32,494 nt of DNA from IMG/VR virus record IMGVR_UViG_3300014613_000067, positions 1 to 32,494 of that record. One strand, written 5' to 3'. Shown here piece after piece: positions 12,239 to 30,909 of the stretch; position 1 is the first letter of the stretch; every line of letters begins with the position of its first letter. Made by a program: the position numbers and the translations under genes. The notes under the pieces were generated by a model. It was given only the letters and a program-made list of their open reading frames with translations. It had not been told where the DNA came from and made no database searches. This DNA comes from a virus (taxonomy: Duplodnaviria; Caudoviricetes).

Positions 12239-13612
12239 TTATCTTATCCTCCCCTTGATTTTGATATAAGTCTGTTGAACCAGATCCGCATCATCGAAGT
12301 TTATGAAAACCCAGTTCCCACCTTCCACAACTCGATGGTCAATATCAGTTCCCCGCACTTCAACCTCAGATGTAGTATTTGCCCTTAAATCTGCTTCGAT
12401 ATCATTATCGTGAGACGGACAGGCATCGGCGGTCCACTCCTCCACGTCGACCTGGTAATCTGTAGCATTACTAAATATCTGCATATAAACACTGTCGATG
12501 ATGATGCCGTTAGGATACGTGTCCTTATCAATCTTGAGCCAACCAACCAGTGGCGACACCCCAGATCTAACATCATCCGCATTAAAAGTATTAGCATTTA
12601 CAATCACTACGCTCACGCCTGACAGGGTGGCCCCACTGTCTGATCCAAATAGAAGTTTTGGAATAAAAAAACCTGTGGTCATTGTCCTTGCGGTTTCCAC
12701 CCCACCTGCAACCAATGAGAGCATATCCGCTGCTGGCCTATAAAGACCAGTATTTTCATCAATGTTAAACGAATAAGAAGGCAAGTCAAAAGATCCAGGA
12801 TACCTTAGTATTGCTGGGCTTCCTATGCCTCCTGATCCTAAAAAGTAAGATTGATTTATCCCAAATCTTACGATACCTCCTATGGTAAACCTTAAGTAAT
12901 CATCTTCTGATTCATAAATTCCAGTATCCATATCTCCAAAAGCAATCGTAGGGGTTATAGCATTATTCTGTTGGGGTAGGTAGTGCTTACCTTCGTTCGT
13001 AATTCCACTGTCCGTAACGGTTATGGCTCCAACTACACGTAGACTTACCCCAGAAGGCACAGTCACAGTCTTTGACACCCCACCGTCAACAGTAACATAA
13101 ACACTATTCCCTGTCGCTGTCGTGCTAAGCCCGTTAAGACCTTTCAGGAACATTCCCCCTACGGCATCCCCAAGAATGGCTGACTCCGCTTCGGTCCCAT
13201 CATCAGTCTGGATTGTAGTCAACCCCGACGCACCAACGGCGGTCGCGGTTGAAGTAATAACCAGGCCAAAGGTTCCACCGGCGCTATCTGATGGAGTCAG
13301 GTTGATACCGGCTCCTGCCGTCAATCCAAAATTAGCCGCACCTGTTAAGGTTGCTCCGCTATCCGCCCAAAGACTGACACCTGAGACACCTCCTGTGCCC
13401 GCCGCTGTAGTCATGGTGGTCCCGTCAAAAAATGCAATCCCTTTGAAGGTCTGCGTACCCGACCAGGTGTTGTCTTTCTTCAAGAGATAAGCGGGATCTC
13501 TCATCACCCTCGCATTGATGGGCCTTTTCCCCTCGCTATATGCGGGCGATAAAACCGAGCCAAGCAATGAAACGATCAGGCTAAAGAATATTATAGTTTT
13601 CCACCTATCCAT
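12239..13612 (-). CDS. Tail fibre-like protein with N-terminal signal peptide (alternative start 13627)
   Basis: NTWSGTQTF fibre motif; two P-x-x-x-F-x-(x)-D-x-[DN]-TG-x-Y repeats; position after the internal proteins. Confidence 0.75.
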   Translation of the reverse strand: MDRWKTIIFFSLIVSLLGSVLSPAYSEGKRPINARVMRDPAYLLKKDNTWSGTQTFKGIAFFDGTTMTTAAGTGGVSGVSLWADSGATLTGAANFGLTAGAGINLTPSDSAGGTFGLVITSTATAVGASGLTTIQTDDGTEAESAILGDAVGGMFLKGLNGLSTTATGNSVYVTVDGGVSKTVTVPSGVSLRVVGAITVTDSGITNEGKHYLPQQNNAITPTIAFGDMDTGIYESEDDYLRFTIGGIVRFGINQSYFLGSGGIGSPAILRYPGSFDLPSYSFNIDENTGLYRPAADMLSLVAGGVETARTMTTGFFIPKLLFGSDSGATLSGVSVVIVNANTFNADDVRSGVSPLVGWLKIDKDTYPNGIIIDSVYMQIFSNATDYQVDVEEWTADACPSHDNDIEADLRANTTSEVEVRGTDIDHRVVEGGNWVFINFDDADLVQQTYIKIKGRIR

Positions 13613-13626
13613 GATACCGCCCTCCA

Positions 13627-14508
13627 TTATGGCTCATTGGTATAGCAATCAATCCTTACCGCGATCTCGGCCAGGGCCTCCATTTTTAGATTGTTCAGTT
13701 CTTTGCGGTTCAAGAACCGGTAATCCCCTACCTCTAAAGTCATTGCATTGGCCCTGTTGATGCTCGATCCGTCTTTCGTATAAAATACGCTATTGCCCGA
13801 GCCGACTATCTGCATCTCGACCCACCGGGTGCCTGCCGGGATACCGTTACCGTTATCATCGGCGGCGGTCGTGCTTGTCCCTGAATTGGCATTCAGGCTG
13901 TATACCCGATTGCCGATAACAAAGGGCTGGGGCGGCACCCACCATGCTCGATCAAACCCGCTGGTAATGCCGACCTGGGCGTTATCGAACGGCGTAATAC
14001 CCGATGGTAAAAAATAGCCTCGCATGTAATTAGCCGGCCCTGTCTCAAAGAAATAGGGAACAACCGTATTACCCGAATTAATAGCCAGGGCGGTAAATAC
14101 CGGTGTTAGCTCTGCGTTGGCCCAGGCCTCCGGTGTATTCTCCTGCGCCGTCTTAATAAAGAAAGCCGCTGTTGTCCCGGACGAAAAATCGCTCGTACCT
14201 GTGGCCGCCTGGGACGGGTCCAGGTCGACAATGTCCACCCGGAAAAGCCCGCCCGAATCGCTGATATCAATCGTGTAAAGATCGGTCTTCAGCTCATCAG
14301 GGATCGGGCCGTAGCGGCGGGCCATGTTGGACACACCGGTATCTGTGGTCGCCGTGGCCGCCGTGGTATTCCCGGAGTCATAGACCGTCGCACCGGAACT
14401 GGGCACGGTCATCAGGGTAAACACCCATTTCTTTGTCCCGGCCTCGGCCTGGACCGATAAGGCCAGGAGAACCGCTACCATCAATAAAAATCTTCCTATC
14501 CGTTTCAT
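13627..14508 (-). CDS. Virion-module beta protein with signal peptide
   Basis: MKRIGRFLLMVAVLLALSVQAEA; RBS AAGGAG. Confidence 0.8.
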   Translation of the reverse strand: MKRIGRFLLMVAVLLALSVQAEAGTKKWVFTLMTVPSSGATVYDSGNTTAATATTDTGVSNMARRYGPIPDELKTDLYTIDISDSGGLFRVDIVDLDPSQAATGTSDFSSGTTAAFFIKTAQENTPEAWANAELTPVFTALAINSGNTVVPYFFETGPANYMRGYFLPSGITPFDNAQVGITSGFDRAWWVPPQPFVIGNRVYSLNANSGTSTTAADDNGNGIPAGTRWVEMQIVGSGNSVFYTKDGSSINRANAMTLEVGDYRFLNRKELNNLKMEALAEIAVRIDCYTNEP

Positions 14509-14549
14509 GGCGTTACTCCTTTTATAAAAATCTGTGTTCTATGGCTTCC

Positions 14550-17500
14550 TTACTGCGCGGCTTCCGCCTGTTGTTTTATATGCCCGTAATCAACCGCCAT
14601 TCTCAATGCCGGCGACTCCTCAAGCAACCTGATATTGGCCAGGGCCATTGCCTCATTCCTGTAGCGCTTGATATGCACTTCCTTCATGTCCGGACTTGCA
14701 GATCTGTACTGAGGATCATTTTTCACCATGTCATCCAGGCTGCTCTTCAGGCCTTTTCCGGTCGAATTCAGGGGGACGGTATTCATGAGCACCAAAAAGC
14801 GGTCATATTCATGTGGTGGCAGATTCAGGGCCACGCCTTCAAAGCTCATAACTTTTTTCGGTTTAGCAATGGGCAGCCGAAGCCTGATCAGTTCCCTGTC
14901 GATAGGCGAATCCTTTGCCTTCGAAAGATAGAATGGAGAGAGGGCGCTAAAGGCCGTTTCAATCCAGGAGCGATCCTTGCTGTAAGCGGTCGTGATAGGT
15001 TCGCCCCACAGATCGCGGCGGGGAGGAAGATCGGAGGAAAGACCAGGTATCCTGGATTTCATGGCATCTATTATGCTGTATACCGCCTCCATCTCCGGGT
15101 CCATGGTACGTTCTACCTGGGCGAACAGGGCGGGCACCATTGACCGGGCAAAGTTCTGGATATATCTTTGTCCGTATCGATCGGGATCATGTATGGCCTC
15201 TATGGCTTCGGAGACGCCCTTCATCCAGGTCTTGCTCGTGACGTTCTTTGACAGGGCCAGGGCGATCGCAGCGGCAAGCTTATCCATTTCAGGCTGCATT
15301 TCTTCGCCTGCCAGGCCCGCTATCTCCGTAAAATCGGCTGCCGCGCCTAAAAGTATTCCCAGGGGCTCAAGACGGTTAAAGGATATATAGGTATCGCCTA
15401 TTCTCATGGAATAGGGCTGCCATCCGGTCCTGCGCAAAGCGGCCTGCATCTCAGGATCTGATGGTCCGCCACCCGTAATAAGGCCCTGGGCAGCCAGATA
15501 GCCCGTTGATATCATGGCTGTGGATCCCATGGAGACCCTGGCGAGGGCCAGATCCCTGCGTGCGCCGCCCGCTCCGATTTCAGACCAGAATCTCCTTGAA
15601 GCAAAGGCGAGCGGGGTCCGCTCAAAGCCGCCTTTCATGATGTTTACCGGCGTTCTCACAAAAGGTGTTATCAACCGGAGCACGGGAACTTGAGATAATA
15701 TGCCCTGAAATTTTCGGCCTATTTCGCCCAGGGGCTGTGTGAAGGTCTGATATCTGCTCGCATCCACTGCGGCCATATGGATATCAGGGGCGATCTCTTC
15801 TGGGTTTTGAATGATCTCCTGTATCCGTTTTGCCATGCTTACGCCCTTCAGCCCCTCGTCAATGGCCTGGCGGTTCGCCCTGGCATGGAGTTCCATCTTG
15901 TAACCAACGGATTTAAAGAGTTCATCCTCGGCTGTGAGGAGCCTTCCCGGCACCCTGACCATTTCACCCATAAGGTCAACGGCTTGGGCGGCCATACCAC
16001 CCTGCTCCAGGGCATTGGGGCTGATCTTTTTTATAAGTCTGCCCGGAATAGTCTCACGGAGATTCTCTGCTGTAATGGCACGGTGCACCCTGGTCTCTAC
16101 CTTGGTCAGTTGCTCGGAGGGCTCGCCGGTGCGCAGGGCCTTGGCGGCTAATTTCCACCCGTCCTGCAGGCCCTCCATAAGCCCGTATGCCTGGCTTATA
16201 GCTTCCTGGGCCTTGACGGCCCTGGACCCCGTGATCTGGCCGATGCCTGCGGCCACGAATCTTTCCGGAATCTGCCACACGGCAAACAGGGTGTTGGATA
16301 GGGTATTGGTTGCATGGGTCTGTGGACCGGAAAGCAGACCGTTAATCCATGCCTCAAGAACCATATCAAAGGTGGTTGCACGACGGATCTGGCGGGCAAA
16401 GGTATTCACTCCTTCTACCGTATCAAGATGGGAGACCATTTCGGCTATCTTTGAGGTAGACATACCACCAGGAAGATTCTCAAGAAGTTCCTTGATGGCC
16501 TTTGTCTGGCCTTCCATGCCGGCCACGCTTATACCGAAAGCCTGAAGAGCCCTGCCAGCCTCGGCAGTCATACCGGAGACCTGGGCCTGAACGGCATAAT
16601 GCACATTAAGATGCTTGATAAATTCAAACCTGTCGATATCATTGGCATCGATGCTCGATGCCTTTTTAGAAAGCTCGACAAGATGCTCTGCGGATGACAC
16701 CAGAATCTGCCGTGCAGCCGTGGCCTGTTCGGCGTTAAAGGCCTCGCCTTTACGGCGTTTCAGCAGGGTCTTGACATCCATGCCCAGCAGATCTGCCAGC
16801 TTTCCGGTCTCCTCGTTTGAGATCATGCCGCGACGGGCGGCATCGATGCCGGACGAAAAAAGATCGGCGGTCTTAGCTATGGCCTCCTGGACATCATCCG
16901 ATGACTTGATGTTGGCAAAATTAATATTGACGGCCTTTTCGGGAAGATCCTGGATATTTGTCTGAAGAAAAAGGGAGGCCTTTTTTTCTGTCTCCGGTGC
17001 CAGCTCTACAAGAGGCTTACTGGAATCGCCCAGGACGTAGTTTAGGCGGGTTTCAAGTTCGAAGGGTGGTTCTATTGCAGCCCTGGGCGGGATTATATCA
17101 CCTTCTCCGACTCCCTGCAAAGGTTTCTCTCCATATTCCGCATTAATATCTTTCACCACAGAAGCGGTAAGCTCATCATCAACCTTTTCTGCCTGGAGAT
17201 TGGTCTTCACCCTCTCAACGGCATCCCGGACAAGCTGGGCGGATGGTTTAACGCCCTTTTTGGAAAAAGCCTTGATGATGCTTTTTTCTAAAAGATTCTC
17301 CACGCTCATACCGGAGACCATGCCTATCAGCACATTAAAGGGCATCGCAAGCCTCGGGTACTTCTCGCCCACCTTTTCGGTGGCAATGCCTACGGGGTAG
17401 TCCGCAATGGCGCCAACACCTGCCGCAGTAATCGACCTGGCCAGAGCGGGCATTAATTTCATACCGGCGCTCCATGCCACTTTCCCTGCTCCGGCAAAAC

Positions 17501-17855
17501 CACCGGAGGCGGCCGGTAGGGGATCGACCCAGGGTTCTTCAAGCCCGCCCATCATGGCCTGGATTTCTTCATCTGTTTTCCCTGATGATTTTTGCTGATC
17601 TATAAATTCCTGTTTTTTCTTCTCCTGATCTTCCGGAGTTAATCCGGGCTTTTCTGCTTTTCCCGGACCGGCTGGTTGCGATTTATCCCCATACCTGAAA
17701 AGCGCCTGCACGGCCGGAGAATGAAATTCATGGCTGATCTGGCGGTTTTCGAGATAGGCCCCGCTCACATCATCCTGAATATAATCTTCGGTCATTACAG
17801 GCTGGCCGGTCTTGGTGTTAATCCCGTCAACGATTTGTACTTTCGGTATCTCCAT
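14550..17855 (-). CDS. Large internal virion (ejection) protein
   Basis: 1101 aa, helical; PFVRTPVNI and GWQPYS motifs; T7 gp16-like position. Confidence 0.75.
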   Translation of the reverse strand: MEIPKVQIVDGINTKTGQPVMTEDYIQDDVSGAYLENRQISHEFHSPAVQALFRYGDKSQPAGPGKAEKPGLTPEDQEKKKQEFIDQQKSSGKTDEEIQAMMGGLEEPWVDPLPAASGGFAGAGKVAWSAGMKLMPALARSITAAGVGAIADYPVGIATEKVGEKYPRLAMPFNVLIGMVSGMSVENLLEKSIIKAFSKKGVKPSAQLVRDAVERVKTNLQAEKVDDELTASVVKDINAEYGEKPLQGVGEGDIIPPRAAIEPPFELETRLNYVLGDSSKPLVELAPETEKKASLFLQTNIQDLPEKAVNINFANIKSSDDVQEAIAKTADLFSSGIDAARRGMISNEETGKLADLLGMDVKTLLKRRKGEAFNAEQATAARQILVSSAEHLVELSKKASSIDANDIDRFEFIKHLNVHYAVQAQVSGMTAEAGRALQAFGISVAGMEGQTKAIKELLENLPGGMSTSKIAEMVSHLDTVEGVNTFARQIRRATTFDMVLEAWINGLLSGPQTHATNTLSNTLFAVWQIPERFVAAGIGQITGSRAVKAQEAISQAYGLMEGLQDGWKLAAKALRTGEPSEQLTKVETRVHRAITAENLRETIPGRLIKKISPNALEQGGMAAQAVDLMGEMVRVPGRLLTAEDELFKSVGYKMELHARANRQAIDEGLKGVSMAKRIQEIIQNPEEIAPDIHMAAVDASRYQTFTQPLGEIGRKFQGILSQVPVLRLITPFVRTPVNIMKGGFERTPLAFASRRFWSEIGAGGARRDLALARVSMGSTAMISTGYLAAQGLITGGGPSDPEMQAALRRTGWQPYSMRIGDTYISFNRLEPLGILLGAAADFTEIAGLAGEEMQPEMDKLAAAIALALSKNVTSKTWMKGVSEAIEAIHDPDRYGQRYIQNFARSMVPALFAQVERTMDPEMEAVYSIIDAMKSRIPGLSSDLPPRRDLWGEPITTAYSKDRSWIETAFSALSPFYLSKAKDSPIDRELIRLRLPIAKPKKVMSFEGVALNLPPHEYDRFLVLMNTVPLNSTGKGLKSSLDDMVKNDPQYRSASPDMKEVHIKRYRNEAMALANIRLLEESPALRMAVDYGHIKQQAEAAQ

Positions 17856-19406
17856 TTAATCGACCTTGAGTTTTTCGTACTCCTCTTTCCCCTGCTCATT
17901 AATATTCTCCCAGGCGGATACGATATTCTTGAGCTGATCTATAAGCTGCAGCTCATCAAGATATGCCGTCTCTGAGATCTCTTTTTTGAGATATGCCTGG
18001 GCGGAGGCCTCCTCCGCTGTAATAAGATCCGCCAGGTTATTCTTTTGCCCCTTCAGGAACATGGGCCTCCGCAACCCATGAATCGATCGGCGCAGATCGG
18101 AGGTATAGGAATTCACTACTGTTTTTGAAGCGTTCCCAGGCTCCATGCCCGAATCTATCAGTGTGTTGAACCTGTCCATGGCCTCGGCATATTTGAGGTG
18201 TTTGTCCTGGCTCCATCTGTCGGCTTCAGAAGGTTCCAGGGCGCGTGCGACAAAGGAGACCGCATCTTCATATTCTTTCTTTACAACCTGCCCTATCATT
18301 GTGATGTAAGTCCCATCTTTTATATCACCCCTTTGAAGGGCGGCCTTCAGGAGCGGGCGTGCATCCCTTCCTCTTTCTATCTCCTCCTGGATCTCTCCGA
18401 GGACTATCGGATTGTTTTCCTGGGGAGTCTTTTCGGGTTTCTCCATCCTGTCTCTGATGTTTATATAAGCGCCCTCGCTGATCTCCCTTGCGCTGGCTAT
18501 CTCTTCAAGCATTTCAAAGGTCATCGTCTTATTAAAAAACCCCTGATATGCCTGGTAATCGCTGTTTTCAATAAGTTGTGTCCTGATCTTTTCTATCTCT
18601 TTTTCGGCATCTTCCTGCTGTTTGATCTGTTGTTTAAGATTGGCCTGGTGAAGTCTAAGCGCATGATCACTCAGTGTAATCTTGTCTCCTGGGGTCAGAG
18701 AGGGGTAATCATCCGGATTGAATTTTTCTGGATTCCTCCTTAAATCCTGCCCCGCCCTGGTCCTCTCCGTAGTCTCTGAAAATTTGATTAGGTTTTCCCC
18801 CGCCTCCTGTGCCGTGATATAACCGGCGCTGAAGTTTTCGGCGGTGGCTACCTTAAATCGTTGGATAATGTCCTCCCGGCCCCCTTCGTCCTCGCCGGAA
18901 AAAAGTTTTTCATAGCTGTCTTTGGCATTGAAATAACTGGCCCGGCCAAAATCTGCCGTCTTCTTTCTGACAATTCCCCCGATCTTGACGCCCCCCTCCA
19001 GGTGCATCTTGACCAGGTCGTTGGTCAGGGCCTGAAACACATTGTCATCTAAATTCTTTTCTTCGTATCCCTTTTGTATGCCCCCTATCAGGTTATCCCA
19101 CTCAGCCTCGAAGTTTTTATAATCGTTCCTGCCCGCTAAACCCTTCTCAAAATCTGTTACCTGTTTCAGGGTATCGAGCTGGGTATTGTTCAGCTCGGTT
19201 ATCTGGCTCGCCTTATGCCACTTCTCCGCAAGCTCTGTTGCAATATCCGCTACCTTGCTCAGCTCACCCGCTGCCTGCCCTGCGCCAGAAGAAAAAGATT
19301 CCGCCTCTGCATGGATACCGGGAGGAATCCCGGGAATAGAGACCGGTCCGCCTTGCAGCCTGCCCAGGTTGATATCATCCCTTCTATATGTTGGTATGAC
19401 TGGCAT
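17856..19406 (-). CDS. Internal virion (ejection) protein
   Basis: MPVIPTY start; helical; gp15-like position. Confidence 0.7.
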   Translation of the reverse strand: MPVIPTYRRDDINLGRLQGGPVSIPGIPPGIHAEAESFSSGAGQAAGELSKVADIATELAEKWHKASQITELNNTQLDTLKQVTDFEKGLAGRNDYKNFEAEWDNLIGGIQKGYEEKNLDDNVFQALTNDLVKMHLEGGVKIGGIVRKKTADFGRASYFNAKDSYEKLFSGEDEGGREDIIQRFKVATAENFSAGYITAQEAGENLIKFSETTERTRAGQDLRRNPEKFNPDDYPSLTPGDKITLSDHALRLHQANLKQQIKQQEDAEKEIEKIRTQLIENSDYQAYQGFFNKTMTFEMLEEIASAREISEGAYINIRDRMEKPEKTPQENNPIVLGEIQEEIERGRDARPLLKAALQRGDIKDGTYITMIGQVVKKEYEDAVSFVARALEPSEADRWSQDKHLKYAEAMDRFNTLIDSGMEPGNASKTVVNSYTSDLRRSIHGLRRPMFLKGQKNNLADLITAEEASAQAYLKKEISETAYLDELQLIDQLKNIVSAWENINEQGKEEYEKLKVD

Positions 19407-19420
19407 AGCTCAATATAACT

Positions 19421-20062
19421 TTAGAACCCCGTTAATAATGATTGGTCTTGCTTTTTCTTGCTTTTATTATAAACATCAGCTACCTTTGACGCCCCTGTCA
19501 GTATCGTTGTCCCTGCCTGATAGGTACCTGCCCGTCCCGCCTGCGCTCCCTGCATCCGATTGAGGGCCGCCCCGGATCGCAATACATCGGACGTGCTTGC
19601 ACCCGCGATCATGGCGGTATCTGCGCCCGTCTGATACTGCCATGCCTTATACTTCCAGTTGTAGGCCTCTGTCTCTCCCCGGCGCAATATACCCAGGCGG
19701 TCGTAATCCACCTCCAGCATGGTCTGGACCAGGACATCGATCGGGGTTCCCTCCAGCAAGATACCGGCCTTGCCGTATTTAGCCTTTTGTGCGGCTATTA
19801 ACCGGCGGCCTTCTTCACCCTTTTTTTGGGCTTCCTCTTCAGCTTCCGTCGTGGCCACGGCGGCGTTATACTCTGCATACTCGACCTGTTGTCTGGCAAC
19901 GTCCGCCTCGCGCTTTGCGTTATACTCCGCCCACTGGGCCTGGTTCTCTCCCACAAGGGCGTTATATTCCCTCGCCTCTTCCTGCTCCTTCCCTTGCTGG
20001 TATTGGCTATAGGCGGCTGTAGCGGCGCTGAGGATTGTCATAATGACCAGGAAAACTTCCAT
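19421..20062 (-). CDS. Internal virion protein (gp14-like)
   Basis: Ala/Gln-rich; QKAKYGKAGILLEGTP. Confidence 0.75.
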   Translation of the reverse strand: MEVFLVIMTILSAATAAYSQYQQGKEQEEAREYNALVGENQAQWAEYNAKREADVARQQVEYAEYNAAVATTEAEEEAQKKGEEGRRLIAAQKAKYGKAGILLEGTPIDVLVQTMLEVDYDRLGILRRGETEAYNWKYKAWQYQTGADTAMIAGASTSDVLRSGAALNRMQGAQAGRAGTYQAGTTILTGASKVADVYNKSKKKQDQSLLTGF

Positions 20063-20081: not shown

Positions 20082-22340
20082 TTAGTCCTCTGTCGTAACC
20101 TTCACAACAATTGACCGTATAGTTAAGGGTAGCGGTTCGTCCTGGACTACGGTAATGTAGCCCTCCTTTTCATATCCGCCCGGATAACTTATCTCCTTGT
20201 CCCCGGTAAAAAGATTGGTAGTGCCGCTTTCGGTCACTACGTCTAAAAGCTTATCTTCGTTCGGACCTACTGCAAAATTCTTTGTCTTATAAAGTCGTAG
20301 TATCGCCTTTGATATGCGCTTTATCCTGCCCTGGGACGTGCCGCCGTCCTCGGCGGGCGCTTCCAGACGCATGGTTTTGAGCGTGGCGGTATAAGGGAGT
20401 CCTATATGGACTTTGCTCGCCGCTTCCAGGATGCTGAAATTTCCGTCCGCGTCTACGGCGGCGCTCGTCACGCCTCCATCGGCCAGGACGCTGACCCCTG
20501 AGTCTCCATAAATAGTCGCTCCGGTTAAAGCCGTAACCGGGGACCCGGAATAGCTGAGGCTTCCGTCCAGGAGAATCGCGTCTGCAAGGTCTGTGCCGGT
20601 AAAGTGGGGGTTCAGGACTTCGATGAATCTTTTCTCATCTCCGTTTATAATTCTTTTGACAACCACATAGAGATCGTCTTGCATGTCTCCCGGTATAACG
20701 GCGGCGCTCTCAAACGAGCCTTGCGTAGTGTGGCGATGCCATGCGAATACCTCATGCTCCGGCAAATAGGTCAAACCTAATAAATTCCCATCCGCCCTGG
20801 TGGCCCACAAAACGCTGAAAGGTTCCTGTTGAAACGCCAGCTCGGATACACCGCTCTCCGTGATATGTTCCGCCAGAACAGTCATGTCGGGCGCTACATA
20901 TCCGGCGCTCTCCCAGTTATAGGAAAGCTTCCTGATCTTCCTCCGTGCCGACTGTATAAAAAGGATATCCTTGCCGATATTTGCGGCCATGCGGTTATAG
21001 GACCCGTATACCAGCTCTCGCTTGGCCGTGATATTTGTCGGGATAATGGGATCATCCGGATCTGTGGCGCTGATACGCCACTCCCCTGCGGTTGTGCCCA
21101 TGGTGAGATAAATAGATGGCACAAGCCACTGAATAGCGTTTACCTGGTCTGATGCCAGGGTGATAATAATAGCGTCGTCATCCAATACTCCGGTGGTAAA
21201 ATCGGTAAAATCCCCGGATTTGGATATCCATACCGTGTTGGGTTCGGTGTTGGTGTTGGCAAATATCAGCCGGTTTTCATGGAAGGTGCAGCATGAGGGG
21301 TAATCATCGGCCCCGGTAAAGGGGTCGGCTGTAAAGGCGCTGGCCCCGCTTATCGAGGTAAGGGCAAAATTGGTGTGGCCGCTCCTCTCAAGTATGTAGA
21401 CATCATAATCCGGGTGGGTCAGGTACATTACATCGGCGCTCTGGCACCATTTCAGATCATCAAGATCCCCTTCCTGATAGGGTGTTTCTATTTCATAGGC
21501 GGGATCAGCTTGTTTAATTTCAATTTCATCAAAATAATGGGTAACCCCGGAGCCGCCGCCGCCTTTCACCTCCAGTGTTATTTCGGCGGTTGATGCGTTT
21601 GCATAAAAATCAAAAGTGTGTTCCGTCCAGGCGGCCGGTGGGGACGATAATCCGGATTCGTATATCCTGTCTAAACCTACCCATAATGTCACCTCAATAT
21701 AATAAGGGGGTGCGTTGGAAACTCCTGATCCCGCTTTGACAGCCCAATGAAATTGATGTTTTTCACCCTCCTCGATCGGTATATCACTCTGTTCAACAAC
21801 ACCCCACTGACCTCCACCGGTCCCATTTAACGCCAGGCAATGTCCAGTTACCCCCCCTGCCACACTACTTGCATAACCCCTGACCAAAGTCCAGTCCGTA
21901 ACCCCTGCGCCGAAATCGCCATTTGAGACCGCATTAGAGGACCAGGGATCACCGCTCAGGATCTGCCCCTGGTTCATATAGAACCGCATGTACTCCTCGC
22001 CTGCCTCGATAATATAGGCCTGCTCGGTGGAAAATTCAAAAGGGATCAAACGACATTTCTTGTCGTAATTTTTGACTTTTGCCACATGGGCGAATCCCGG
22101 CCGCTTGGTCGCAGGACCGTGCGGGTACACAAAGAAGTTTTCAAGCTCAATGCAGCCGCTCTGATATTTTGCCATATCGGTGCGGCCTTCCATGAGAGGG
22201 GAAAGCTCGCCCGAGGTGAAGTTGGTTATGGCAATATGGGTATCTAACGCATAGGAGCAGGGGGCAAAGAGCGGGGCGCAAAAAGCCAGAATAGATATGA
22301 CTAATAGGGTGATATTTCTTTTTTTTGCGCTAAATGACAT
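20082..22340 (-). CDS. Tail tubular protein B / nozzle (T7 gp12-like) with signal peptide and CBM-like insertion
   Basis: TNFTSGELSP, KRPG, RLIPFEFS, QSADVMY, FHENRLIFA, AWHRH, HIGLPY. Confidence 0.9.
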   Translation of the reverse strand: MSFSAKKRNITLLVISILAFCAPLFAPCSYALDTHIAITNFTSGELSPLMEGRTDMAKYQSGCIELENFFVYPHGPATKRPGFAHVAKVKNYDKKCRLIPFEFSTEQAYIIEAGEEYMRFYMNQGQILSGDPWSSNAVSNGDFGAGVTDWTLVRGYASSVAGGVTGHCLALNGTGGGQWGVVEQSDIPIEEGEKHQFHWAVKAGSGVSNAPPYYIEVTLWVGLDRIYESGLSSPPAAWTEHTFDFYANASTAEITLEVKGGGGSGVTHYFDEIEIKQADPAYEIETPYQEGDLDDLKWCQSADVMYLTHPDYDVYILERSGHTNFALTSISGASAFTADPFTGADDYPSCCTFHENRLIFANTNTEPNTVWISKSGDFTDFTTGVLDDDAIIITLASDQVNAIQWLVPSIYLTMGTTAGEWRISATDPDDPIIPTNITAKRELVYGSYNRMAANIGKDILFIQSARRKIRKLSYNWESAGYVAPDMTVLAEHITESGVSELAFQQEPFSVLWATRADGNLLGLTYLPEHEVFAWHRHTTQGSFESAAVIPGDMQDDLYVVVKRIINGDEKRFIEVLNPHFTGTDLADAILLDGSLSYSGSPVTALTGATIYGDSGVSVLADGGVTSAAVDADGNFSILEAASKVHIGLPYTATLKTMRLEAPAEDGGTSQGRIKRISKAILRLYKTKNFAVGPNEDKLLDVVTESGTTNLFTGDKEISYPGGYEKEGYITVVQDEPLPLTIRSIVVKVTTED

Positions 22341-22351: not shown

Positions 22352-22393
22352 TCAATCTTCATTCTTCAATAATCAATTTTCAATATTCAAAAC
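22352..22393. repeat. 7-mer tandem repeat (TCAATNT x6)
   Basis: tcaatct tcattct tcaataa tcaattt tcaatat tcaaaac. Confidence 0.8.
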
Positions 22394-23193
22394 CTTCCAG
22401 CCGTCTGCCAGCTATTAAGTTCTCTCTCGTCAACCTGCTTGCCCTTCCGTGCCTCGATGGCCATGATATCCAATCGGGCCTTATTCAGCTCAATGCCGAT
22501 CTGCTGTGTTAATGTCTTCGAGGCGGCCAGTTTTTGACAGAATTGATATGCCAGGGTGAGGTAAAGCACATAGATAAAGGAAGGGCTGAATTTGGTCGTA
22601 TCCGTTATTTGTGCGATATATTCCAGGTCGATCGCATCGTCATTGACAAGCAGGTATTTCTCCTCGATGTCATAGTCGGCGGCGCTGTCATAGAGTTTGT
22701 GATCTTTCAGGAAATCAGAGGGCAGGCTGTACTCATACTCGAACTCAAATGGCGGCCTGAGTCTCACCTTGCCGCCTGACGTGTACGCGCCAAAGGCGGT
22801 GCCGTCCACGTCTTCCAGCTCAAAGGTATCTGTGGCCACATTAGCGATGCGGTAGGTATTGGTGTTTAAATCGGTCATGCCCCCCACGTCGGATATATAG
22901 ACATGGCGATAATCGGTAAAGCCATGTCCGGCGCATGTGATGACAACGGGATCGGCCTGGGTGGCCCCGGTAATGTCTTTTATCTGGTCATCGGAATCTA
23001 TGCTGATACGGCGCCTTGCGAACGGCCAGGGGAACATCTCCAGGACCTCGTCCCGCTTCTGTTCATAAAGCAGGTTGGCAAGCAGGGCATAGGGCTCGCT
23101 GCCCGTAAAGTTGGGGGGTTGGGCGCTCTCCTCAATCATGAAGTCCCCGATCCTGGCCAGTGCCATGTTGCATATATCTTTGGCTGTTGCCAT
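22387..23193 (-). CDS. Tail tubular protein A / adaptor (T7 gp11-like) with FCCH-like insertion
   Basis: DICNMALARIG, PWPFARRR, YSLPSDFL. Confidence 0.9.
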   Translation of the reverse strand: MATAKDICNMALARIGDFMIEESAQPPNFTGSEPYALLANLLYEQKRDEVLEMFPWPFARRRISIDSDDQIKDITGATQADPVVITCAGHGFTDYRHVYISDVGGMTDLNTNTYRIANVATDTFELEDVDGTAFGAYTSGGKVRLRPPFEFEYEYSLPSDFLKDHKLYDSAADYDIEEKYLLVNDDAIDLEYIAQITDTTKFSPSFIYVLYLTLAYQFCQKLAASKTLTQQIGIELNKARLDIMAIEARKGKQVDERELNSWQTAGRF

Positions 23194-24113: not shown

Positions 24114-24119
24114 CCGGTT

Positions 24120-24548
24120 TTACAGGCCATTGAAAAAGCTGATCTTTTCGTAATTATTGGACTGTTTATCAATCACAACATTTGCGTCAAGATTGCCCGC
24201 CGTAAAAGGACCGGTAGTTACGGTGTAATAGAGCCTCACATACCGGTCCGTGTTCTCCGGTATGGGGGGCAGCTCAATAGCGTAGCCTGCTACCAGCGCC
24301 GCCTTGGCCAGGGCGGCTGTTGCCCAGTGTGTCGTAGAACTGCCAAAAGTTGAATCGTCACTGCTCTGCAGCGATATGGTCAGTGTGGTTGCGCCGGCAG
24401 AGGTAAAGGTTGTCGTAACAGCGCATTGAATGGGCAGGGGTCTCCCGGCCCCGATAAAATCGGTTTGGGTATCCCATATGTCCTCACTGTCATCTGTTAC
24501 CGTAATGGCCTGTGCATTGCTTAACTCGGTATGTCCATCTAATAACAT
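24120..24548 (-). CDS. Capsid cement protein (Bbp16-like)
   Basis: MLLD...SNAQAIT...RYVRLYYTV...GPFTAG; follows the MCP. Confidence 0.85.
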   Translation of the reverse strand: MLLDGHTELSNAQAITVTDDSEDIWDTQTDFIGAGRPLPIQCAVTTTFTSAGATTLTISLQSSDDSTFGSSTTHWATAALAKAALVAGYAIELPPIPENTDRYVRLYYTVTTGPFTAGNLDANVVIDKQSNNYEKISFFNGL

Positions 24549-24613
24549 TTTGCTTATCCTCCTTTCGCAAGGATTTTCTGATTAAATGTTAAATACTTCG
24601 ATCAAGAAACGAC

Positions 24614-25603
24614 CTATGCCGCTACCAGGGCGGTCTCTGTGTTCAACAGTTGGTCCACCTTACGGACCGGGATACCCCAAAACTTGGTGACCGGGTTCCC
24701 GAAAGCATCATCAACCTGCGTGAAAAAGCGGTTGTTGCTGTCAGATGCGGCGATATCCATCTGTGTCTTGATGGTCTCGTTGACGTAGATGGCCGGCTTG
24801 CAAAGTTTCATGTTGGGTATTTTGTTATAGGCCTGGATCAGATACTTATGATCAAACGTGTTGGCGTCTCCGGCGGTCTCCACGTTGCATACCCTGACGA
24901 TATAGCGCCAGTCCTGTACGCAAAGCCCGGTCTTCCACTCCCACCAACTCACAAATGCCAGATACTCCCCGGCCGGTGTCTGGTCGTCGGATACCAGGAT
25001 AGGCTCGCCCTTACCCACATCGGTATGCTGGATACCGGCCTTGGTGCCCTTGGGGAAAATCATGTGGACGGTGTTCTCTCCCCAGCCTACCAGCCAGATG
25101 CTCGTTACATCGCTGCCGCTCCCGCCGTTATTGATCACGTTCGGGGCATCCGAGTATGGATACCTGGCGGCCATCCCCAGGAACTTCTCCGGGGTCAGGT
25201 CGGTATCGTAATAAAAAATACCGCCTGCCAGGTCCTGGTTCATGGCGCTGATATAGGGTTTTTCCTCTGCCAGCCTGGCAAGTGTGGTGCCGCCGTTCAG
25301 TTCGACGAGCCCCTTGTCCGCCTTGGCCAGGGCGCTGAGCATGCCGCATGTGTCTGTGACCTGAATGGTGGTAAACTTGCTCGGCTGAATACCACGATTG
25401 AGCTTGCGCCAGGTGACGGTCGGCTGCCCGGTCAAAACGGTGGTCTGATGACCGGTCGGAAGATTACCCTCTTTGAAGAGGGCATCTTCCAATACCTCAT
25501 TGGTCTCACTGAGGATGTCGACTATTTTGGCTATCTTGCCGTCCGGGCCGATCCGCTTGGCCCAGTCTGCAAGGGTGTATACATTGGTTCCGATAGTTCC
25601 CAT
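24614..25603 (-). CDS. Major capsid protein (BPP-1 Bbp17-like)
   Basis: TLADWAKR, EGNLPTGH, TSIWLVGWG, DWRYIVRVCN, GIPVRKVD. Confidence 0.92.
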   Translation of the reverse strand: MGTIGTNVYTLADWAKRIGPDGKIAKIVDILSETNEVLEDALFKEGNLPTGHQTTVLTGQPTVTWRKLNRGIQPSKFTTIQVTDTCGMLSALAKADKGLVELNGGTTLARLAEEKPYISAMNQDLAGGIFYYDTDLTPEKFLGMAARYPYSDAPNVINNGGSGSDVTSIWLVGWGENTVHMIFPKGTKAGIQHTDVGKGEPILVSDDQTPAGEYLAFVSWWEWKTGLCVQDWRYIVRVCNVETAGDANTFDHKYLIQAYNKIPNMKLCKPAIYVNETIKTQMDIAASDSNNRFFTQVDDAFGNPVTKFWGIPVRKVDQLLNTETALVAA

Positions 25604-25608
25604 TGTTG

Positions 25609-26334: not shown

Positions 26335-26620
26335 GGTTACTCTCCTCTCGTAATTTAATAGGGTATTTTTTGGCTATATCAATAAGCGCTATGGTAATGG
26401 GCATAATAGTCTGGTGCTGCAATACGCCCATGTCTTCTAATATTTTTACTGCCACATTCCGCTTTATTCTTTCCTCCTCGGTCTTGCACTCGCTGAAAAA
26501 GTAATTCTTAGTTAAAATATCTGCAAGAATCCTGGTCAAAGCCGGTGTCGAAAAGGCCGCCTGATAATCCCTTGACCGGTTTTCAATCATATTTTCATAT
26601 GCTGTTTTCTCGCCTGCCAC
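26318..26620 (-). CDS. Bbp19-like small protein
   Basis: DYQAAFST...ILADI; directly follows the portal. Confidence 0.65.
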   Translation of the reverse strand: MAGEKTAYENMIENRSRDYQAAFSTPALTRILADILTKNYFFSECKTEEERIKRNVAVKILEDMGVLQHQTIMPITIALIDIAKKYPIKLREESNHGRCK

Positions 26621-26621
26621 C

Positions 26622-28367
26622 TTAAGCCGCTCCTGCCTGTGCCATTAAACCGGGTAGGTTTTTGAATATTTCGCCACCACTCGCCTGATCCGCCTCGGCC
26701 AAAGTCTTGGCCCCTGCTAATCCCTCCATAAGCTGCCTCTTGGCCGCCTCGGCTTGTGCCAGATCCTCCCTGACCTGGCGCATTTTATCCACCTCTTCGG
26801 TAGACCTGGTAGCCTTTTGAGGGTAATTATTGGATTCCAGTATCTCCCTGGCTGTCTCGTCCTCGTTCACAACATCCAGCACATGAGGGAACATCTCGGC
26901 CAGGGGTTGCAGGGCTATGAGACCCTGGGTAATGCTTTGTGTTTTAAAAAGCCGCCGTTGGGCCTGGGCCAGAGGGCCTAAATAAGTGACGCCGATGGGA
27001 CCCGCGCCGTAATCCCAGTAGATCTGGGGGACCTCCGGTAATCTCCCTGCCCTGTATTCGATCTGAAACACCCTGTTCATATTGGGATCAAGGCAATCCT
27101 GGTTAAGTCTGCCGATTGCCGTAGCCATGAGGGCCGCTTTCTCGCCGGCCCGCTCCAGGATCTCTGTAGCGGTCATCTGCCGTTTCGCCCTGGTCAGCAT
27201 AAGAAAAAAATCAAGATGAAAATGCCGCTCGATCACATCCCTGATACGGTCCTCCCTGTCAGTGCCGATCGGGTAATTAATCCCGGTCTGGACAGGCGTA
27301 ACGATCCGATTATGATCGTCACCATAATAATTAAAACCGTGCGGTATGATGTTGACCTTACCTAACAGTTCCGCCGGAACGTTATAAGCCGGATCTACCG
27401 ACATGCGGCTCGATCTGAGCATATCCTTGCTGATAAGGTTTAAAGACATGATATCGGCAAGGGCGAACATGGCCGGGCTGCGGCCGTAGGTTTCGAGGCT
27501 GCTCTTGCGGTACCGCCAGACATGGTACGGTAGACCGTCGTAACCCCACTCACTTATGACCTTCCTGGAGGTTATATCCACCCAAACAGATGCAAACGAC
27601 TTATTGAGCCCGTCCAGCTTATCGGGATTGCGCTTGGTCCTGGGGTAAACGGCGTGCAGGTACGGATATTTTTCGTATGGATTTGTTTCAAGGGAACGCT
27701 GGGCGGCATCCGATAGTTTTCCCTTACCGAATCGCTCCTTCGCCTTCTTGGCTGTCAGCTTTTCCTTTCTGAAAACGGTGTCCACTTCGCCGTATTGGTT
27801 CTCTGCGATATATACCTGGCCGGGGTGCATTGTGGTGAATGCGATCTTCCCCTCACCCTTATTCTCTTCCGAGTAGATCGTTGCCGTGCCGATCGTGCCG
27901 CCGTCCTCAAAGTAGGGCGTCATGGCGGAGTAAAAGTTAGAACGCTGATAGGCCCGGTACATGCCTATATCCGCTTCCTGGAGCCAGGCCTTTATCTCCG
28001 GGATGTCCTCCATATACTCATACCTGGCAATATAGGGCCTCATTGGCCCCCTCGTCATAGCGCCGGGTTGGCGGGCCGATAAACGGTCCTTCACCGACAC
28101 CTTGAGAGTCTGTCTGAACCACAAAATATTGGCCGGGATAAGGTGGCCGCTCATCCCATCCACATACACCTGCACGGCGTAAATAGGGTTGCCGTTATAT
28201 ATCTTGGTGGCCAGGCGCTGGCCCTCGGCCTTCTCCATCCTGATATCTTCCCTGATAGGGGCGACATGGTCGGCTACATCCTGCCATGTCTCCTCGTAGG
28301 GGTTGCGGATCTCCTCCAGGTTTTTTTGAGCTGATAGGAGGCTTTTTGCTATTTCATCTTCTGGCAT
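26622..28367 (-). CDS. Portal (head-tail connector, T7 gp8-like)
   Basis: SNFY, GTATIY, VDTVFR, YGRSPAM, MTATEI, YLGPLAQAQR. Confidence 0.93.
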   Translation of the reverse strand: MPEDEIAKSLLSAQKNLEEIRNPYEETWQDVADHVAPIREDIRMEKAEGQRLATKIYNGNPIYAVQVYVDGMSGHLIPANILWFRQTLKVSVKDRLSARQPGAMTRGPMRPYIARYEYMEDIPEIKAWLQEADIGMYRAYQRSNFYSAMTPYFEDGGTIGTATIYSEENKGEGKIAFTTMHPGQVYIAENQYGEVDTVFRKEKLTAKKAKERFGKGKLSDAAQRSLETNPYEKYPYLHAVYPRTKRNPDKLDGLNKSFASVWVDITSRKVISEWGYDGLPYHVWRYRKSSLETYGRSPAMFALADIMSLNLISKDMLRSSRMSVDPAYNVPAELLGKVNIIPHGFNYYGDDHNRIVTPVQTGINYPIGTDREDRIRDVIERHFHLDFFLMLTRAKRQMTATEILERAGEKAALMATAIGRLNQDCLDPNMNRVFQIEYRAGRLPEVPQIYWDYGAGPIGVTYLGPLAQAQRRLFKTQSITQGLIALQPLAEMFPHVLDVVNEDETAREILESNNYPQKATRSTEEVDKMRQVREDLAQAEAAKRQLMEGLAGAKTLAEADQASGGEIFKNLPGLMAQAGAA

Positions 28368-28587
28368 CCCTCTGTTTCCTCAATGATTCGTCTTTGCTCT
28401 GCGGCCTTTTCCAACTGGCCAGCATTGTTAGATGCTCGATGCGCTTGATGTGAAACTCCTTTAATTTTTCTATGATCTCAGGTTTATCTCCCGGCACGGT
28501 CTCCAGGGTGTAGCCCTCCACAACAATCGGTCTCTTGACCAGATCTTCCAACTTTTTTACACTTTCAGGCTTTCTCGGTAGCGACAT
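28354..28587 (-). CDS. Hypothetical protein; N-terminus paralogous to 28591..29169
   Basis: MSLPRKP...GYTLETVPG. Confidence 0.7.
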   Translation of the reverse strand: MSLPRKPESVKKLEDLVKRPIVVEGYTLETVPGDKPEIIEKLKEFHIKRIEHLTMLASWKRPQSKDESLRKQRDARR

Positions 28588-28590
28588 GGA

Positions 28591-29169
28591 TCAGGTGCCC
28601 AATTTCTCTTTTTTTGTTGTCGGTTTTCCATACACGCCCTTCCCGCCGGTAAGGATGGTATTGCCGGACCTGGTGCCTGGGCGTTGGCCGGCCTCTCCAC
28701 CGCCCTTGCGCTTCCATGCTTCACTTTGCTTCGCAAACTCTTCAACGTCCGCCGCCTTCTTGGCTTCTTCTTCCTGTAATTTACTCCTGGTCGCCCCATG
28801 GGGGTCCTCCAGCTTCCAGTCGTAGGTCTCGTAAGAATGCGTTAGATTAAAGGGCTGCCACCTTGCAGTTTCTTCGGGAGCTTTATCCCATACCGGGCCT
28901 GTGTAGGCTCCAGCTTTGATAGCTGCCTCTCTTTGTGCGGGCGTCTGAGTGGTCTGTGTGCTGCCAAGAGCGACATGCTTGGTTGTTTTGTAACCAGATG
29001 GGTAGAATTGGGCTGCCCCCGAATACCATCTCTCCACATTTACCGTTTTTGGCACCTTGACATACTTTCCGCCTGGCACCGTTCCAAGGGTAAAGCCGCC
29101 TATCTCCACTTCCCTGGTGGCCAATTTCTCCAGCTCGCCTATCTCTTTTGGTTTTCTCGGTAAAGTCAT
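28591..29169 (-). CDS. Chimeric pre-portal protein
   Basis: MTLPRKP... N-terminus; NTILTG...KLG C-terminus. Confidence 0.75.
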   Translation of the reverse strand: MTLPRKPKEIGELEKLATREVEIGGFTLGTVPGGKYVKVPKTVNVERWYSGAAQFYPSGYKTTKHVALGSTQTTQTPAQREAAIKAGAYTGPVWDKAPEETARWQPFNLTHSYETYDWKLEDPHGATRSKLQEEEAKKAADVEEFAKQSEAWKRKGGGEAGQRPGTRSGNTILTGGKGVYGKPTTKKEKLGT

Positions 29170-29172
29170 TTT

Positions 29173-29502
29173 TTATTCCCCCAATTTTCTTTTTAGTTTT
29201 GTCTTTTGGGTGGCCGGCGCTTCTGTCAGCAACCCCGTAAGTATTGTGCTTGACCTGCCTCTCGCCTGGCTCGATATCTTTTTCTTTGCCTTTTCCAGCT
29301 CTTCCTTGTTAGCCTCGTCATAGGGACTGGGTGGCGGTACATATACCGGTGGAGGCTCCGGAGGGGGGGGCGGTTCATATGCGGGTGGAGGTGCCGGAGG
29401 TGGAGGAGAACTCCCCCCCTTGCAATGGACTGACAGGGTACCTCCGGGGGGATCAATAAAACTTAGTGGTAACCCCTTAAGACTTTTAACAAATATCATC
29501 AT
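29173..29502 (-). CDS. Pro-rich pre-portal virion protein
   Basis: CKGG, poly-Pro, GRSSTILTG...KLGE. Confidence 0.75.
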   Translation of the reverse strand: MMIFVKSLKGLPLSFIDPPGGTLSVHCKGGSSPPPPAPPPAYEPPPPPEPPPVYVPPPSPYDEANKEELEKAKKKISSQARGRSSTILTGLLTEAPATQKTKLKRKLGE

Positions 29503-30044
29503 ATTACCTCGCTCCTTAATATGGATAACATGGTATAATCCGTCCAGCGGCCATCAACCTGTGCCCACTGTCTTAAGCGGCCATCCTTCCGAAATCCCAG
29601 GCGACGCGCAAGGCGTATAGCTGCCCTGTGCCTCGTAATGCCTATCAACATTCGTAGATTGTATTTTTCGAAAAACAAGGGTATGCCATCCCTCAAAATA
29701 GCGGTGATCATCCTATGATTAAGATATCCCTTGCGTTTGAATATGTTGATCGTGGCGTAATGGCCCGGATAAATATTGTCCAGGTACGCCCCGCCTACAA
29801 CCTGGCCGTTGTCTATCCCTGTCATTGATTCCCTGGCCGTTTCCCGGTACCATATCCTGAAGGCCTCATAATTTTTGACCTCGCCTTTGTCCGCCCAAAA
29901 AGAGCCCCATTCCTTCAAAATTTCCCAAAACCCTTCAAAGTGGCTCTCATCGGTTTTAACCACTTCAACCGGTCCGGATCTGAATATGGCCTTGATTGTG
30001 CCGATCGTGCCGGACCTGACTATGATTTCAGGCATACCTTTCAT
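29499..30044 (-). CDS. GNAT-fold (RimJ/RimL-like) acetyltransferase
   Basis: AIRLARRLGFRKDGRLR...DYTMLSILRSE. Confidence 0.8.
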   Translation of the reverse strand: MKGMPEIIVRSGTIGTIKAIFRSGPVEVVKTDESHFEGFWEILKEWGSFWADKGEVKNYEAFRIWYRETARESMTGIDNGQVVGGAYLDNIYPGHYATINIFKRKGYLNHRMITAILRDGIPLFFEKYNLRMLIGITRHRAAIRLARRLGFRKDGRLRQWAQVDGRWTDYTMLSILRSEVI

Positions 30045-30163
30045 TTTTTATTTGCCATAATGGCCCTGTGTTGTCCCTTGGCCTTTTTGACACTCCGGTG
30101 CGTCTTGATCTTCTTACCACTGCGCTTCCCTGTGCAGTGGTAGACTGTGCGGCCTTTTCTCAT
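30041..30163 (-). CDS. Small very basic protein (40 aa, MRKGRTVYHCTGKRSGKK...)
   Basis: Translated by hand; ATGA overlap with the GNAT gene. Confidence 0.55.
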   Translation of the reverse strand: MRKGRTVYHCTGKRSGKKIKTHRSVKKAKGQHRAIMANKK

Positions 30164-30186
30164 CGTTCAACCTTAAGCCGGGGGGG

Positions 30187-30909
30187 TTAACCGCTTATCA
30201 GCTCCGCTTTTTGTTGTACGCTGATCGCGGAATCGTATTGCAGCCGAAATGTCTGGTTGTCGCCCTGGGCGTCTATGCGAAATGTGCTCGCCCCTGTAAC
30301 AAATACACCCTCTCGATCAAGAGCCCTGAGCGTGCCGGTTACGGTCGTGCCGCTGTTATCTTCTGTCGGCTGCCAGAGGTAGATCGGTGACGTGCTCGTG
30401 TCCGGTTTTGTCAGGCTGAATTCATAGCCGTCATTGGCCGCTGTGGGGGTTACCGGTGCAACTGTCAGCCCAGTAAACGCTTTTGCCCATACGGTTAAGC
30501 CGGTCGTCCCCAAGGGGAGGGCGCTGTTTGAGATAGCCGTCAAATCTATCTCAAAGGTACTCGCCTTATACAGCGATGGATCAAGAATAAAAATAGATGC
30601 GCCGCTCTCCTCCGTAGCAGTGAGCTGGTTGTAGTTTGTCACTTTAAAGACACGCGAATAGAAGCGGCTGACACCGGCGTCCGTTATGGTGTCATCCCCT
30701 GAACCGCAAAAATCGAGATTTCTCGTAACGCCCAGGTCTCGAAATCCGCCCTCGCCCCAGGGGTTGGTAGCCCGGCCGACCGTGCCCTGGTTTTTATACT
30801 GCGGATCAAACTCATATCTCGCATAGACCGTGCCCGCCAAAACAATCAGCAGAAAGAAAAATGTTAACCAGCTCCCGGTTAATCTCTTGATAACCTTTCC
30901 CATTTTCAT
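30187..30909 (-). CDS. Virion-module beta protein with signal peptide
   Basis: KVIKRLTGSWLTFFFLLIVLAGTVYA; RBS TAAGGAGG. Confidence 0.8.
   Translation of the reverse strand: MKMGKVIKRLTGSWLTFFFLLIVLAGTVYARYEFDPQYKNQGTVGRATNPWGEGGFRDLGVTRNLDFCGSGDDTITDAGVSRFYSRVFKVTNYNQLTATEESGASIFILDPSLYKASTFEIDLTAISNSALPLGTTGLTVWAKAFTGLTVAPVTPTAANDGYEFSLTKPDTSTSPIYLWQPTEDNSGTTVTGTLRALDREGVFVTGASTFRIDAQGDNQTFRLQYDSAISVQQKAELISG

Follow-up and report, generated by a model that had tools for sequence, protein, structure and literature searches.

The window analysed here, 32,494 bases long, is a complete virus record (IMG/VR IMGVR_UViG_3300014613_000067) of an uncultured member of the Caudoviricetes. It carries on its minus strand the full morphogenesis operon of a podovirus, which runs from the terminase through the portal, scaffold, capsid, Bbp16-type cement protein, adaptor and nozzle to three ejection proteins, and continues with a fibre-like gene and then the lysis genes (table 1). 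According to the textbook, tailed phages assemble entirely in the cytoplasm. A preliminary description of this DNA had claimed that four products of the operon, namely the tail nozzle, the fibre-like protein and the accessory proteins of 30187..30909 and 13627..14508, combine Sec-like N-terminal signals with many copies of a motif, [ST]-G-x-[ST], and had proposed that they are exported and glycosylated. The position of their genes suggests that the two accessory proteins belong to the virion, and that the first of them is possibly a head or tail appendage.

Do the four N-termini resemble export signals? Judged by rule-based criteria and by eye they do, as had been claimed. Each has a basic n-region (net charge +1 to +4), an h-region scoring 2.97–3.25 on the Kyte–Doolittle scale over 11 residues, and a c-region of small residues, which occupy positions −3 and −1. 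None of the four proteins contains a later membrane segment, so that all the features of a substrate of Sec and signal peptidase I are present, and a Shine–Dalgarno-like sequence precedes each ATG.

The nozzle belongs to the T7 gp12 type by its fold, its sequence family (E 4e-128) and its gene, which lies between those of the adaptor and the ejection proteins and is the only nozzle gene among the 29 window proteins scanned against Pfam and PHROGs. A model of the mature chain, built from a 76-row alignment, has a predicted local distance difference test score (pLDDT) of 92.4. Its first 17 Foldseek matches are podovirus tail chains, among them the closest solved structure, that of Cobetia phage Carin-1 (PDB 8ck1; E 5e-47, template-modelling score 0.66), and the T7 tail (E 1e-27). 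The closest cultured phages are of the Pelagibacter HTVC010P type; pelagiphage tail tubular protein B is 37–46% identical to the window nozzle, and the 30 cultured nozzle matches listed align only from window-nozzle residue 30–40 on. The tails of these cultured relatives, T7-type and Pelagibacter phages alike, assemble in the cytoplasm. Whereas the gp12-type nozzle is known as a cytoplasmic, signal-less protein, that of the window has a conserved N-terminal signal. Among the 120 nozzle matches listed, all eight of its closest homologues (54–80% identity) share the signal, as against 1/111 of the others. The signal directly precedes the conserved N-terminal strand (pLDDT 93 in the model) at which signal-less nozzles start.

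Because the signals end at the native N-terminus of the family, and do so on a single-copy nozzle, export and cleavage is the simplest reading, and for all four proteins we consider it very probable. The earlier proposal that outer virion parts are exported thus gains support from the placement of the nozzle signal and from the retention of signals in homologues. Could the N-terminal segments instead be uncleaved membrane anchors for tail assembly, or could a signal-less cytoplasmic form be the one that is used, so that no virion copy leaves the cytoplasm? A head without its nozzle would have to keep its DNA until lysis, a real mechanistic problem familiar from T7 and P22, and this favours retention. 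Against it, by the established rule a basic n-region ahead of the h-region is expected to give an N-in, C-out topology; the cleavage regions end where the signal-less homologues begin; the nozzle homologues have no conserved in-frame internal start at the mature N-terminus; and the scanned window proteins include no second nozzle. We therefore regard the absence of export as improbable.

The signals are also kept in the relatives of the other proteins. They occur in 9/9 homologues of 13627..14508 (41–83% identity), a family in which the motif residues are among the invariant columns, and signal and motifs together are kept in 3/3 homologues of 30187..30909, of which distant homologues with both occur at loci L428 and L132. 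A contig in G001 repeats the window layout with signal-bearing 13627-like and fibre genes; at the fibre position of both G001 and L003 lies a signal-bearing, motif-rich gene. Neither accessory protein matched a family in Pfam, PHROGs or NCBIfam, and for 13627..14508 no known structure matched either, the best score in the ESM Atlas being no higher than 0.83. The fibre-like protein had no match in Pfam, PHROGs, PDB sequences or cultured phages and one weak, broken match in 209 genomes; an A1 pattern scan of viral contigs gave no match.

How far does the motif exceed chance? Figures given as 'a versus b' are observed and expected counts, those expected for window proteins coming from shuffles of each protein. 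The broad motif, [ST]-G-x-[ST], occurs 5 times in 30187..30909 and 9 times each in the nozzle, 13627..14508 and the fibre-like protein (1742 residues together), exactly as first counted. The shuffles give 0.94, 1.63, 0.75 and 1.95, in the same order, with p = 0.0014 for 30187..30909 and 0/5000 shuffles for each of the other three. Pooled, the count is 32 versus 5.3 (z 12), while two reordered controls remain at chance in the same four proteins, [ST]-x-G-[ST] at 3 versus 5.3 and G-[ST]-x-[ST] at 4 versus 5.3; shuffles and controls together rule out an artefact of composition. The eight signal-less virion proteins, for which about five copies had been reported, hold 5 versus 3.4 in 3661 residues, near chance. 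We conclude that the motif excess is real and far beyond chance.

The excess resides almost entirely in a core form with Ser first and a small or branched residue third, S-G-[VATINL]-[ST]. It was chosen after seeing the window data and homologues and then tried on sets not used for choosing. It counts 24 versus 1.0 in the four signal-bearing proteins and 0 versus 0.64 in the eight signal-less ones, and it held in the sets not used for choosing, with 42 versus 2.9 in five distant nozzles and 10 versus 0.67 in the exported proteins of an unrelated phage. Over 14 motif-rich proteins the core stands at 98 versus 5.5, as against 28 versus 23 for S-G-[VATINL]-[^ST], 8 versus 5 for A-G-[VATINL]-[ST] and 25 versus 15 for T-G-x-[ST]. 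Since the variants that lack the first Ser or the last Ser/Thr are barely enriched, both flanks of the motif are needed, which is how a recognition sequence behaves. The codons at the motif positions are mixed; the motif is therefore one of the protein, and an origin at the DNA level is ruled out. Four other candidates for the underlying signal were discarded: N-x-S/T (12 versus 12.9) and the Bacteroidota-type D-(S/T)-(A/I/L/M/T/V) (4 versus 8.4, a depletion), both in the four proteins, G-[ST] alone (176 versus 154, not enriched) and [ST]-G-S (14 versus 12.5, flat).

The proteins that carry the motif are unrelated (A1 versus A4, probability 0.9%). On the monomer model of the nozzle, seven of the nine motif glycines lie in coil and the other two at strand ends, in keeping with the loop positions that had been expected. 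A fifth signal-bearing gene of the operon, 10622..10981, encodes a product poor in Ser and Gly and has no motif, so that the pairing of signal and motif announced at the outset holds for four proteins and fails for this one.

Does the pairing extend to related phages? The nozzle profile matched 21,561 clusters, of which the best 150 were analysed and placed in a FastTree tree; signals occur on 26 of these 150 (24 by rule, 2 by eye), scattered over the tree. Group counts cover 160 of 162 proteins, these being the 150 clusters and 12 added homologues, with two truncated starts left out. The window's signal-bearing group has 6.1 core motifs per 1000 residues (11 proteins, 45 versus 3.3) and a second signal-bearing group has 9.0 (5 proteins, 42 versus 2.9). 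In five signal-less nozzles nested within the window's group the density is 2.2 (8 versus 1.3; p 0.003 against 6.1), while the 18 other signal-bearing nozzles, at 1.6, and the 121 other signal-less ones, at 1.5, define the background. The motif in the loop at residue 705 is kept across indels in 7/11 proteins of the window's group and 5/5 of the second, compared with 0/5 of the nested signal-less nozzles, 1/18 of the other signal-bearing and 6/121 of the other signal-less ones. Only two groups are motif-rich although signals are found on 26/150 clusters; signal and motif are therefore separable. Over all phage loci fetched, 20 exported open reading frames (ORFs) of the two motif-rich groups hold 55 versus 4.1 core motifs; in other phages the figure is 4 versus 4.5 for 50 such ORFs. 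The co-occurrence expected in related phages is thus found in these groups and is absent from the 18 other signal-bearing nozzles. Judged from these comparisons, the motif is a lineage-restricted feature of predicted exported virion proteins.

Either the nested signal-less nozzles, P0020–P0023 and P0156, have lost export or it was gained on two occasions. Elsewhere in the family, N-x-S/T is raised in the signal-bearing nozzle P0147 (21 versus 9.1), but as it is raised in the signal-less P0225 (17 versus 8.1) and P0245 (20 versus 12) too, this is no more than a lead.

Which host might carry such a phage? The phage appears to be temperate: the window has genes that look like repressors, a fragment of a tyrosine recombinase and, as the likely attP core, 48 bases from the 3' end of a tRNA-Pro(CGG). 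A terminator-like hairpin follows the tRNA 3' half and the whole sits just beyond the lysis genes; Rfam and ARAGORN, run over the window, gave no match. In a search confined to the phylum of G002 (delta proteobacterium MLS_D), which we take to be Desulfobacterota, the core was exact in 2/401 genomes and, within the order to which both belong, in at least 13 of 121. Contigs of run X3 extend from the core into the tRNA 5' half; the one RNA run contained 0.07 of the sequence words. These matches offer a lead to a host in one deltaproteobacterial order. The host junction of L369 showed no attachment core; paired-motif DNA patterns, searched in 251 genomes and in ten single look-ups, returned noise only, and the ESM Atlas gave no host clue for a Ner-like gene. 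The Dependentiae assembly that contains L114/G001 was not adopted as host, the 14.4-kb contig showing phage-type genes only.

A profile of the 13627 family, run on all 209 genomes in the candidate order, matched in three. In one of them, G484, the matching gene is part of a phage segment, at whose end stands a host-type ABC binding protein, and a second contig, probably of the same prophage, carries two distant homologues of 30187..30909. The head and tail hub of this phage do not match those of the window, and the nozzle profile found no match in G484, G466 or G513. Its exported proteins hold the 10 versus 0.67 core motifs given above and its other proteins 3 versus 1.25. A third phage type of the order has a short signal-bearing 13627-like gene with three core motifs, beside signal-less tail genes (L370:9202-9723, G466:C131).

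What might the motif do? It is fixed at both ends, recurs many times, mainly in loops, on proteins of unrelated folds and is tied to the exported proteins of particular lineages; in this it resembles something that is recognized, and glycosylation is, from sequence, a plausible function. In the scheme that we rank first, the four signal- and motif-bearing proteins would leave the cytoplasm through the Sec pathway of the host and lose their signals by cleavage, and a dedicated enzyme of the host envelope would possibly attach O-glycans at the motif. This enzyme would be a membrane glycosyltransferase with few host substrates, for which proteins of the PMT_2-TPR or Wzy_C type are at hand in the candidate genomes. 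Head, adaptor and ejection proteins would stay in the cytoplasm. The two sets of parts must therefore meet at the inner membrane or upon its breach; the exported parts would join when lysis opens that membrane, and the filled head would have to hold its DNA until then. We put this combination of export, dedicated host O-glycosylation and joining at lysis forward tentatively, with confidence a little short of even. Given export, the chances that one of the two motif hydroxyls bears a covalent sugar attached by such a membrane transferase seem evenly balanced. The other readings follow in the order of a phage-specific tag, a structural turn and no export.

Several results, set out here and in the next two paragraphs, weigh against host glycosylation. 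Nozzles as a whole have an approximately 3-fold motif background (148 versus 49 in signal-less ones), and S/T/G-rich non-exported phage ORFs a 2-fold one (255 versus 124). The nozzle motifs at residues 320 and 606 are family-wide (38/121 and 30/121 signal-less nozzles), and the signal-less nozzle P0020 holds nine broad motifs. The two motif-rich nozzle groups are split in the best tree, but a tree that joins them is not rejected by the approximately unbiased test (p-AU 0.49); a single origin is possible and we therefore claim no independent one. Three of the four motif-bearing genes of the G484 phage are distant homologues of window genes, which makes that case only partly independent. Could the motif then be a small-residue turn favoured in beta-rich extracellular proteins, amplified by shared ancestry and read by nothing? 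The 2–3 fold background in signal-less beta-rich phage proteins, the family-wide sites, P0020 and the possible single origin would all fit. Yet the motif-rich groups are enriched 13–15 fold, against 3 fold, and forms that begin with Ala or Thr instead of Ser are scarcely in excess. In ordinary phage proteins the reversed pattern, G-S-x-[ST], goes up together with the motif (208 versus 124), whereas in the motif-rich exported ORFs it does not (6 versus 4.1). The 18 other signal-bearing nozzles and the 50 exported ORFs from other phages are at background. For these reasons we think a structural turn unlikely, though less so than the absence of export.

If a host enzyme reads the motif, do the host's own exported proteins carry it? 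In 2.47 Mb from nine candidate genomes, a sample that is itself a lead since the true host may differ, 300 predicted exported proteins hold 29 core motifs versus 21.9, six of the 29 being in phage genes. The 32 S/T/G-rich exported proteins among them stand at 8 versus 7.2, and cytoplasmic proteins at 75 versus 62.4. The check on the host's exported proteome that was suggested at the outset is thus negative in this sample, and a general glycosylation system of the Bacteroidota kind is not supported in the nine genomes. Genes beside the PMT_2 or Wzy_C loci of the candidate hosts include no motif-rich substrate. STT3 above the cut-off was found in 0/5 candidates and a TMEM260-like gene in 0/5; with N-x-S/T flat as well, bacterial N-glycosylation of the PglB/STT3 kind finds no footing. 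Wzy_C proteins are present in four of the five candidate genomes and PMT_2 in four (up to 14 matches), some in tandem with TPR repeats, but both also occur in 9/14 control genomes. Two loci, L464 (G320:C26) and L467 (G484:C179), contain tandem arrays of PMT_2 and TPR membrane proteins beside sugar-pathway genes, an architecture that resembles the eukaryotic TMTC O-mannosyltransferases; a search with TMTC_DUF1736 left the controls without a match.

The only two motif-dense exported proteins among the 300 are both genes of the G484 phage. This favours a tag specific to phages, which might serve exported parts as a docking site for a partner (a protein of the host envelope, a decoration protein or a chaperone) or be modified, by a phage-encoded enzyme or with something other than a sugar. 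The invariance of the motif residues in the 13627..14508 family points the same way, glycosylation sites being usually less strictly kept, and a 42,882-base assembly of the phage leaves some 10 kb of genome beyond the window for further genes. On the other hand, the scanned window proteins include no modifying enzyme except a cytoplasmic GNAT, and the window and the G484 phage share no partner gene beyond the motif-bearing genes themselves. Five to nine copies per chain on four folds would, moreover, suit modification better than stoichiometric docking. A phage-specific tag thus appears unlikely to us, if somewhat less so than the structural turn.

How does host O-glycosylation at this motif compare with known systems? 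The general O-glycosylation of Bacteroidota acts at D-(S/T)-(A/I/L/M/T/V) on a large part of the exported proteome. The likeness is a short Ser/Thr sequon on exported proteins; the differences are that the Bacteroidota sequon is depleted here and that the window motif is not widespread in the exported proteins of the candidate hosts. In the accessible part of a study of anammox Kuenenia, the O-glycan attachment motif on surface proteins is GT/S (10.1101/2020.12.03.409086), which likewise places an O-linked Ser/Thr next to Gly, whereas the window motif needs Ser before the Gly and Ser/Thr two after it. The periplasmic O-oligosaccharyltransferase PglS recognizes the sequon IASGASAATTN of ComP, and its acceptor, Ser82, ends an S-G-A-S stretch; as far as the available text goes, the flanking Ile and Asn, not Ser-Gly, are conserved and needed, and the enzyme is specific to one pilin (PMC8457361), so that the likeness may be chance. 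Mycobacteriophage virions are described, in the sections available, as modified on capsid and tail tube by phage-encoded glycosyltransferases (PMC12363180); no transferase was seen among the scanned window proteins, and the window capsid is without the motif. For haloarchaeal viruses, the portion consulted predicts glycosylation of surface proteins by host AglB, with nine sequons on the HRTV-DL1 attachment protein, and reports that dependence on the host was demonstrated with a virus that has a membrane envelope, not with the tailed HRTV-DL1 (PMC10384203). That system is archaeal and uses N-x-S/T, which is not enriched in the window proteins. The accessible text of a review of bacterial O-glycosylation lists no sequon of the S-G-x-S/T type (PMC12645811), and that of an HFTV1 preprint mentions signals for host proteins only (10.64898/2026.09.13.751334). 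A literature search, drawing mostly on listings and the beginnings of abstracts with few subscription papers, returned no paper on tail nozzles that bear a signal and none on a sequon of the form S-G-x-S/T. None of the systems compared matches the combination of signal and motif.

The nozzle closes the DNA channel, so that a cleavable signal on it implies filled heads that await their tail, and its export a last assembly step across the inner membrane or after its rupture. With signals on 26/150 nozzle clusters, scattered over the tree, this appears to be a recurring strategy among uncultured phages. Should the motif prove to be a sequon, the search for a new protein-modifying enzyme of bacteria would have its substrate at hand; as a docking tag, it would be a clue to how exported parts find each other. 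A bolder proposal is that in anaerobic deltaproteobacteria the nozzle and fibres of tailed phages are built in the periplasm, that a host membrane transferase, possibly of the uncharacterized PMT_2-TPR kind, glycosylates S-G-[VATINL]-[S/T] there, and that the tail joins the filled head at lysis. We consider it doubtful; if true, virions would be assembled in two compartments and bacteria would possess an O-glycosylation code so far undescribed.

Table 1. Features of the window: position, strand, family match, signal and number of motifs (broad form unless stated).
Feature	Position	Strand	Remarks
Terminase large subunit	30937..32472	-	phrog_38, E 8e-42; no signal, 0 motifs
Signal-bearing protein, no known family	30187..30909	-	Between terminase and portal; predicted cleavage after Ala30; 5 motifs
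GNAT gene	29499..30044	-	Downstream of 30187..30909
Portal	26622..28367	-	PF12236, E 5e-119; no signal, 0 motifs
Major capsid protein	24614..25603	-	PF20911, E 2e-108; no signal, 0 motifs
Cement protein, Bbp16 family	24120..24548	-	PF21190, E 7e-27; no signal; S/T-rich yet 0 motifs
Head-tail adaptor	22387..23193	-	phrog_394, E 2e-32; no signal; 1 broad, 0 core motifs
Tail nozzle, T7 gp12 type	20082..22340	-	phrog_376, E 2e-180; predicted cleavage after Ala31; CBM-like insert; 9 motifs (7 core)
Three ejection (internal virion) proteins	14550..20062	-	phrog_418 and phrog_6651 for 2/3; without basic-n-region signal; 4 broad, 0 core motifs
Signal-bearing protein, no known family	13627..14508	-	Predicted cleavage after Ala23; 9 motifs
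Signal-bearing fibre-like protein	12239..13612	-	Role suggested by position and make-up; 9 motifs (8 core)
Signal-less protein downstream of fibre	10983..11771	-	0 motifs; no family match
Small signal-bearing, probably coiled-coil protein	10622..10981	-	h-region Kyte–Doolittle 3.9; no motif; family matches all sub-threshold
NlpC/P60 peptidase, likely endolysin	9605..10225	-	PF00877, E 6e-11
Small membrane proteins flanking NlpC/P60 gene	10212..10619, 8719..9114		Holin-like by anatomy only
tRNA-Pro(CGG), 3' 48 bases	8588..8635	+	Likely attachment core; matches tRNA-Pro(CGG) genes
Tyrosine-recombinase C-terminal fragment	5426..5668		3 kb from tRNA-Pro 3' piece

The short, charged product of 10622..10981 might, at a guess, help in lysis or, once exported, act as a chaperone, perhaps of the fibre. 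At 9570–9610 lies a 41-base intergenic element, probably a host-type repeat, which matches genomes of the candidate-host phylum (100% in G075). In the early region, a minus-strand gene at 3412..3888 without family match has, besides an HExxH-like stretch, a lipoprotein-type N-terminus whose hydrophobic run leads to Ser-Gly-Cys. In both motif-rich groups the signal-bearing gene that comes after the terminase is itself followed by a GNAT gene (29499..30044 in the window and L132:2080-2544), whereas in cultured relatives an acetyltransferase follows the nozzle instead. In two relatives unrelated genes are inserted (L125:2909-3889 and L114:4506-11852), separating either the nozzle gene from the ejection genes or the latter from the 13627-like gene.

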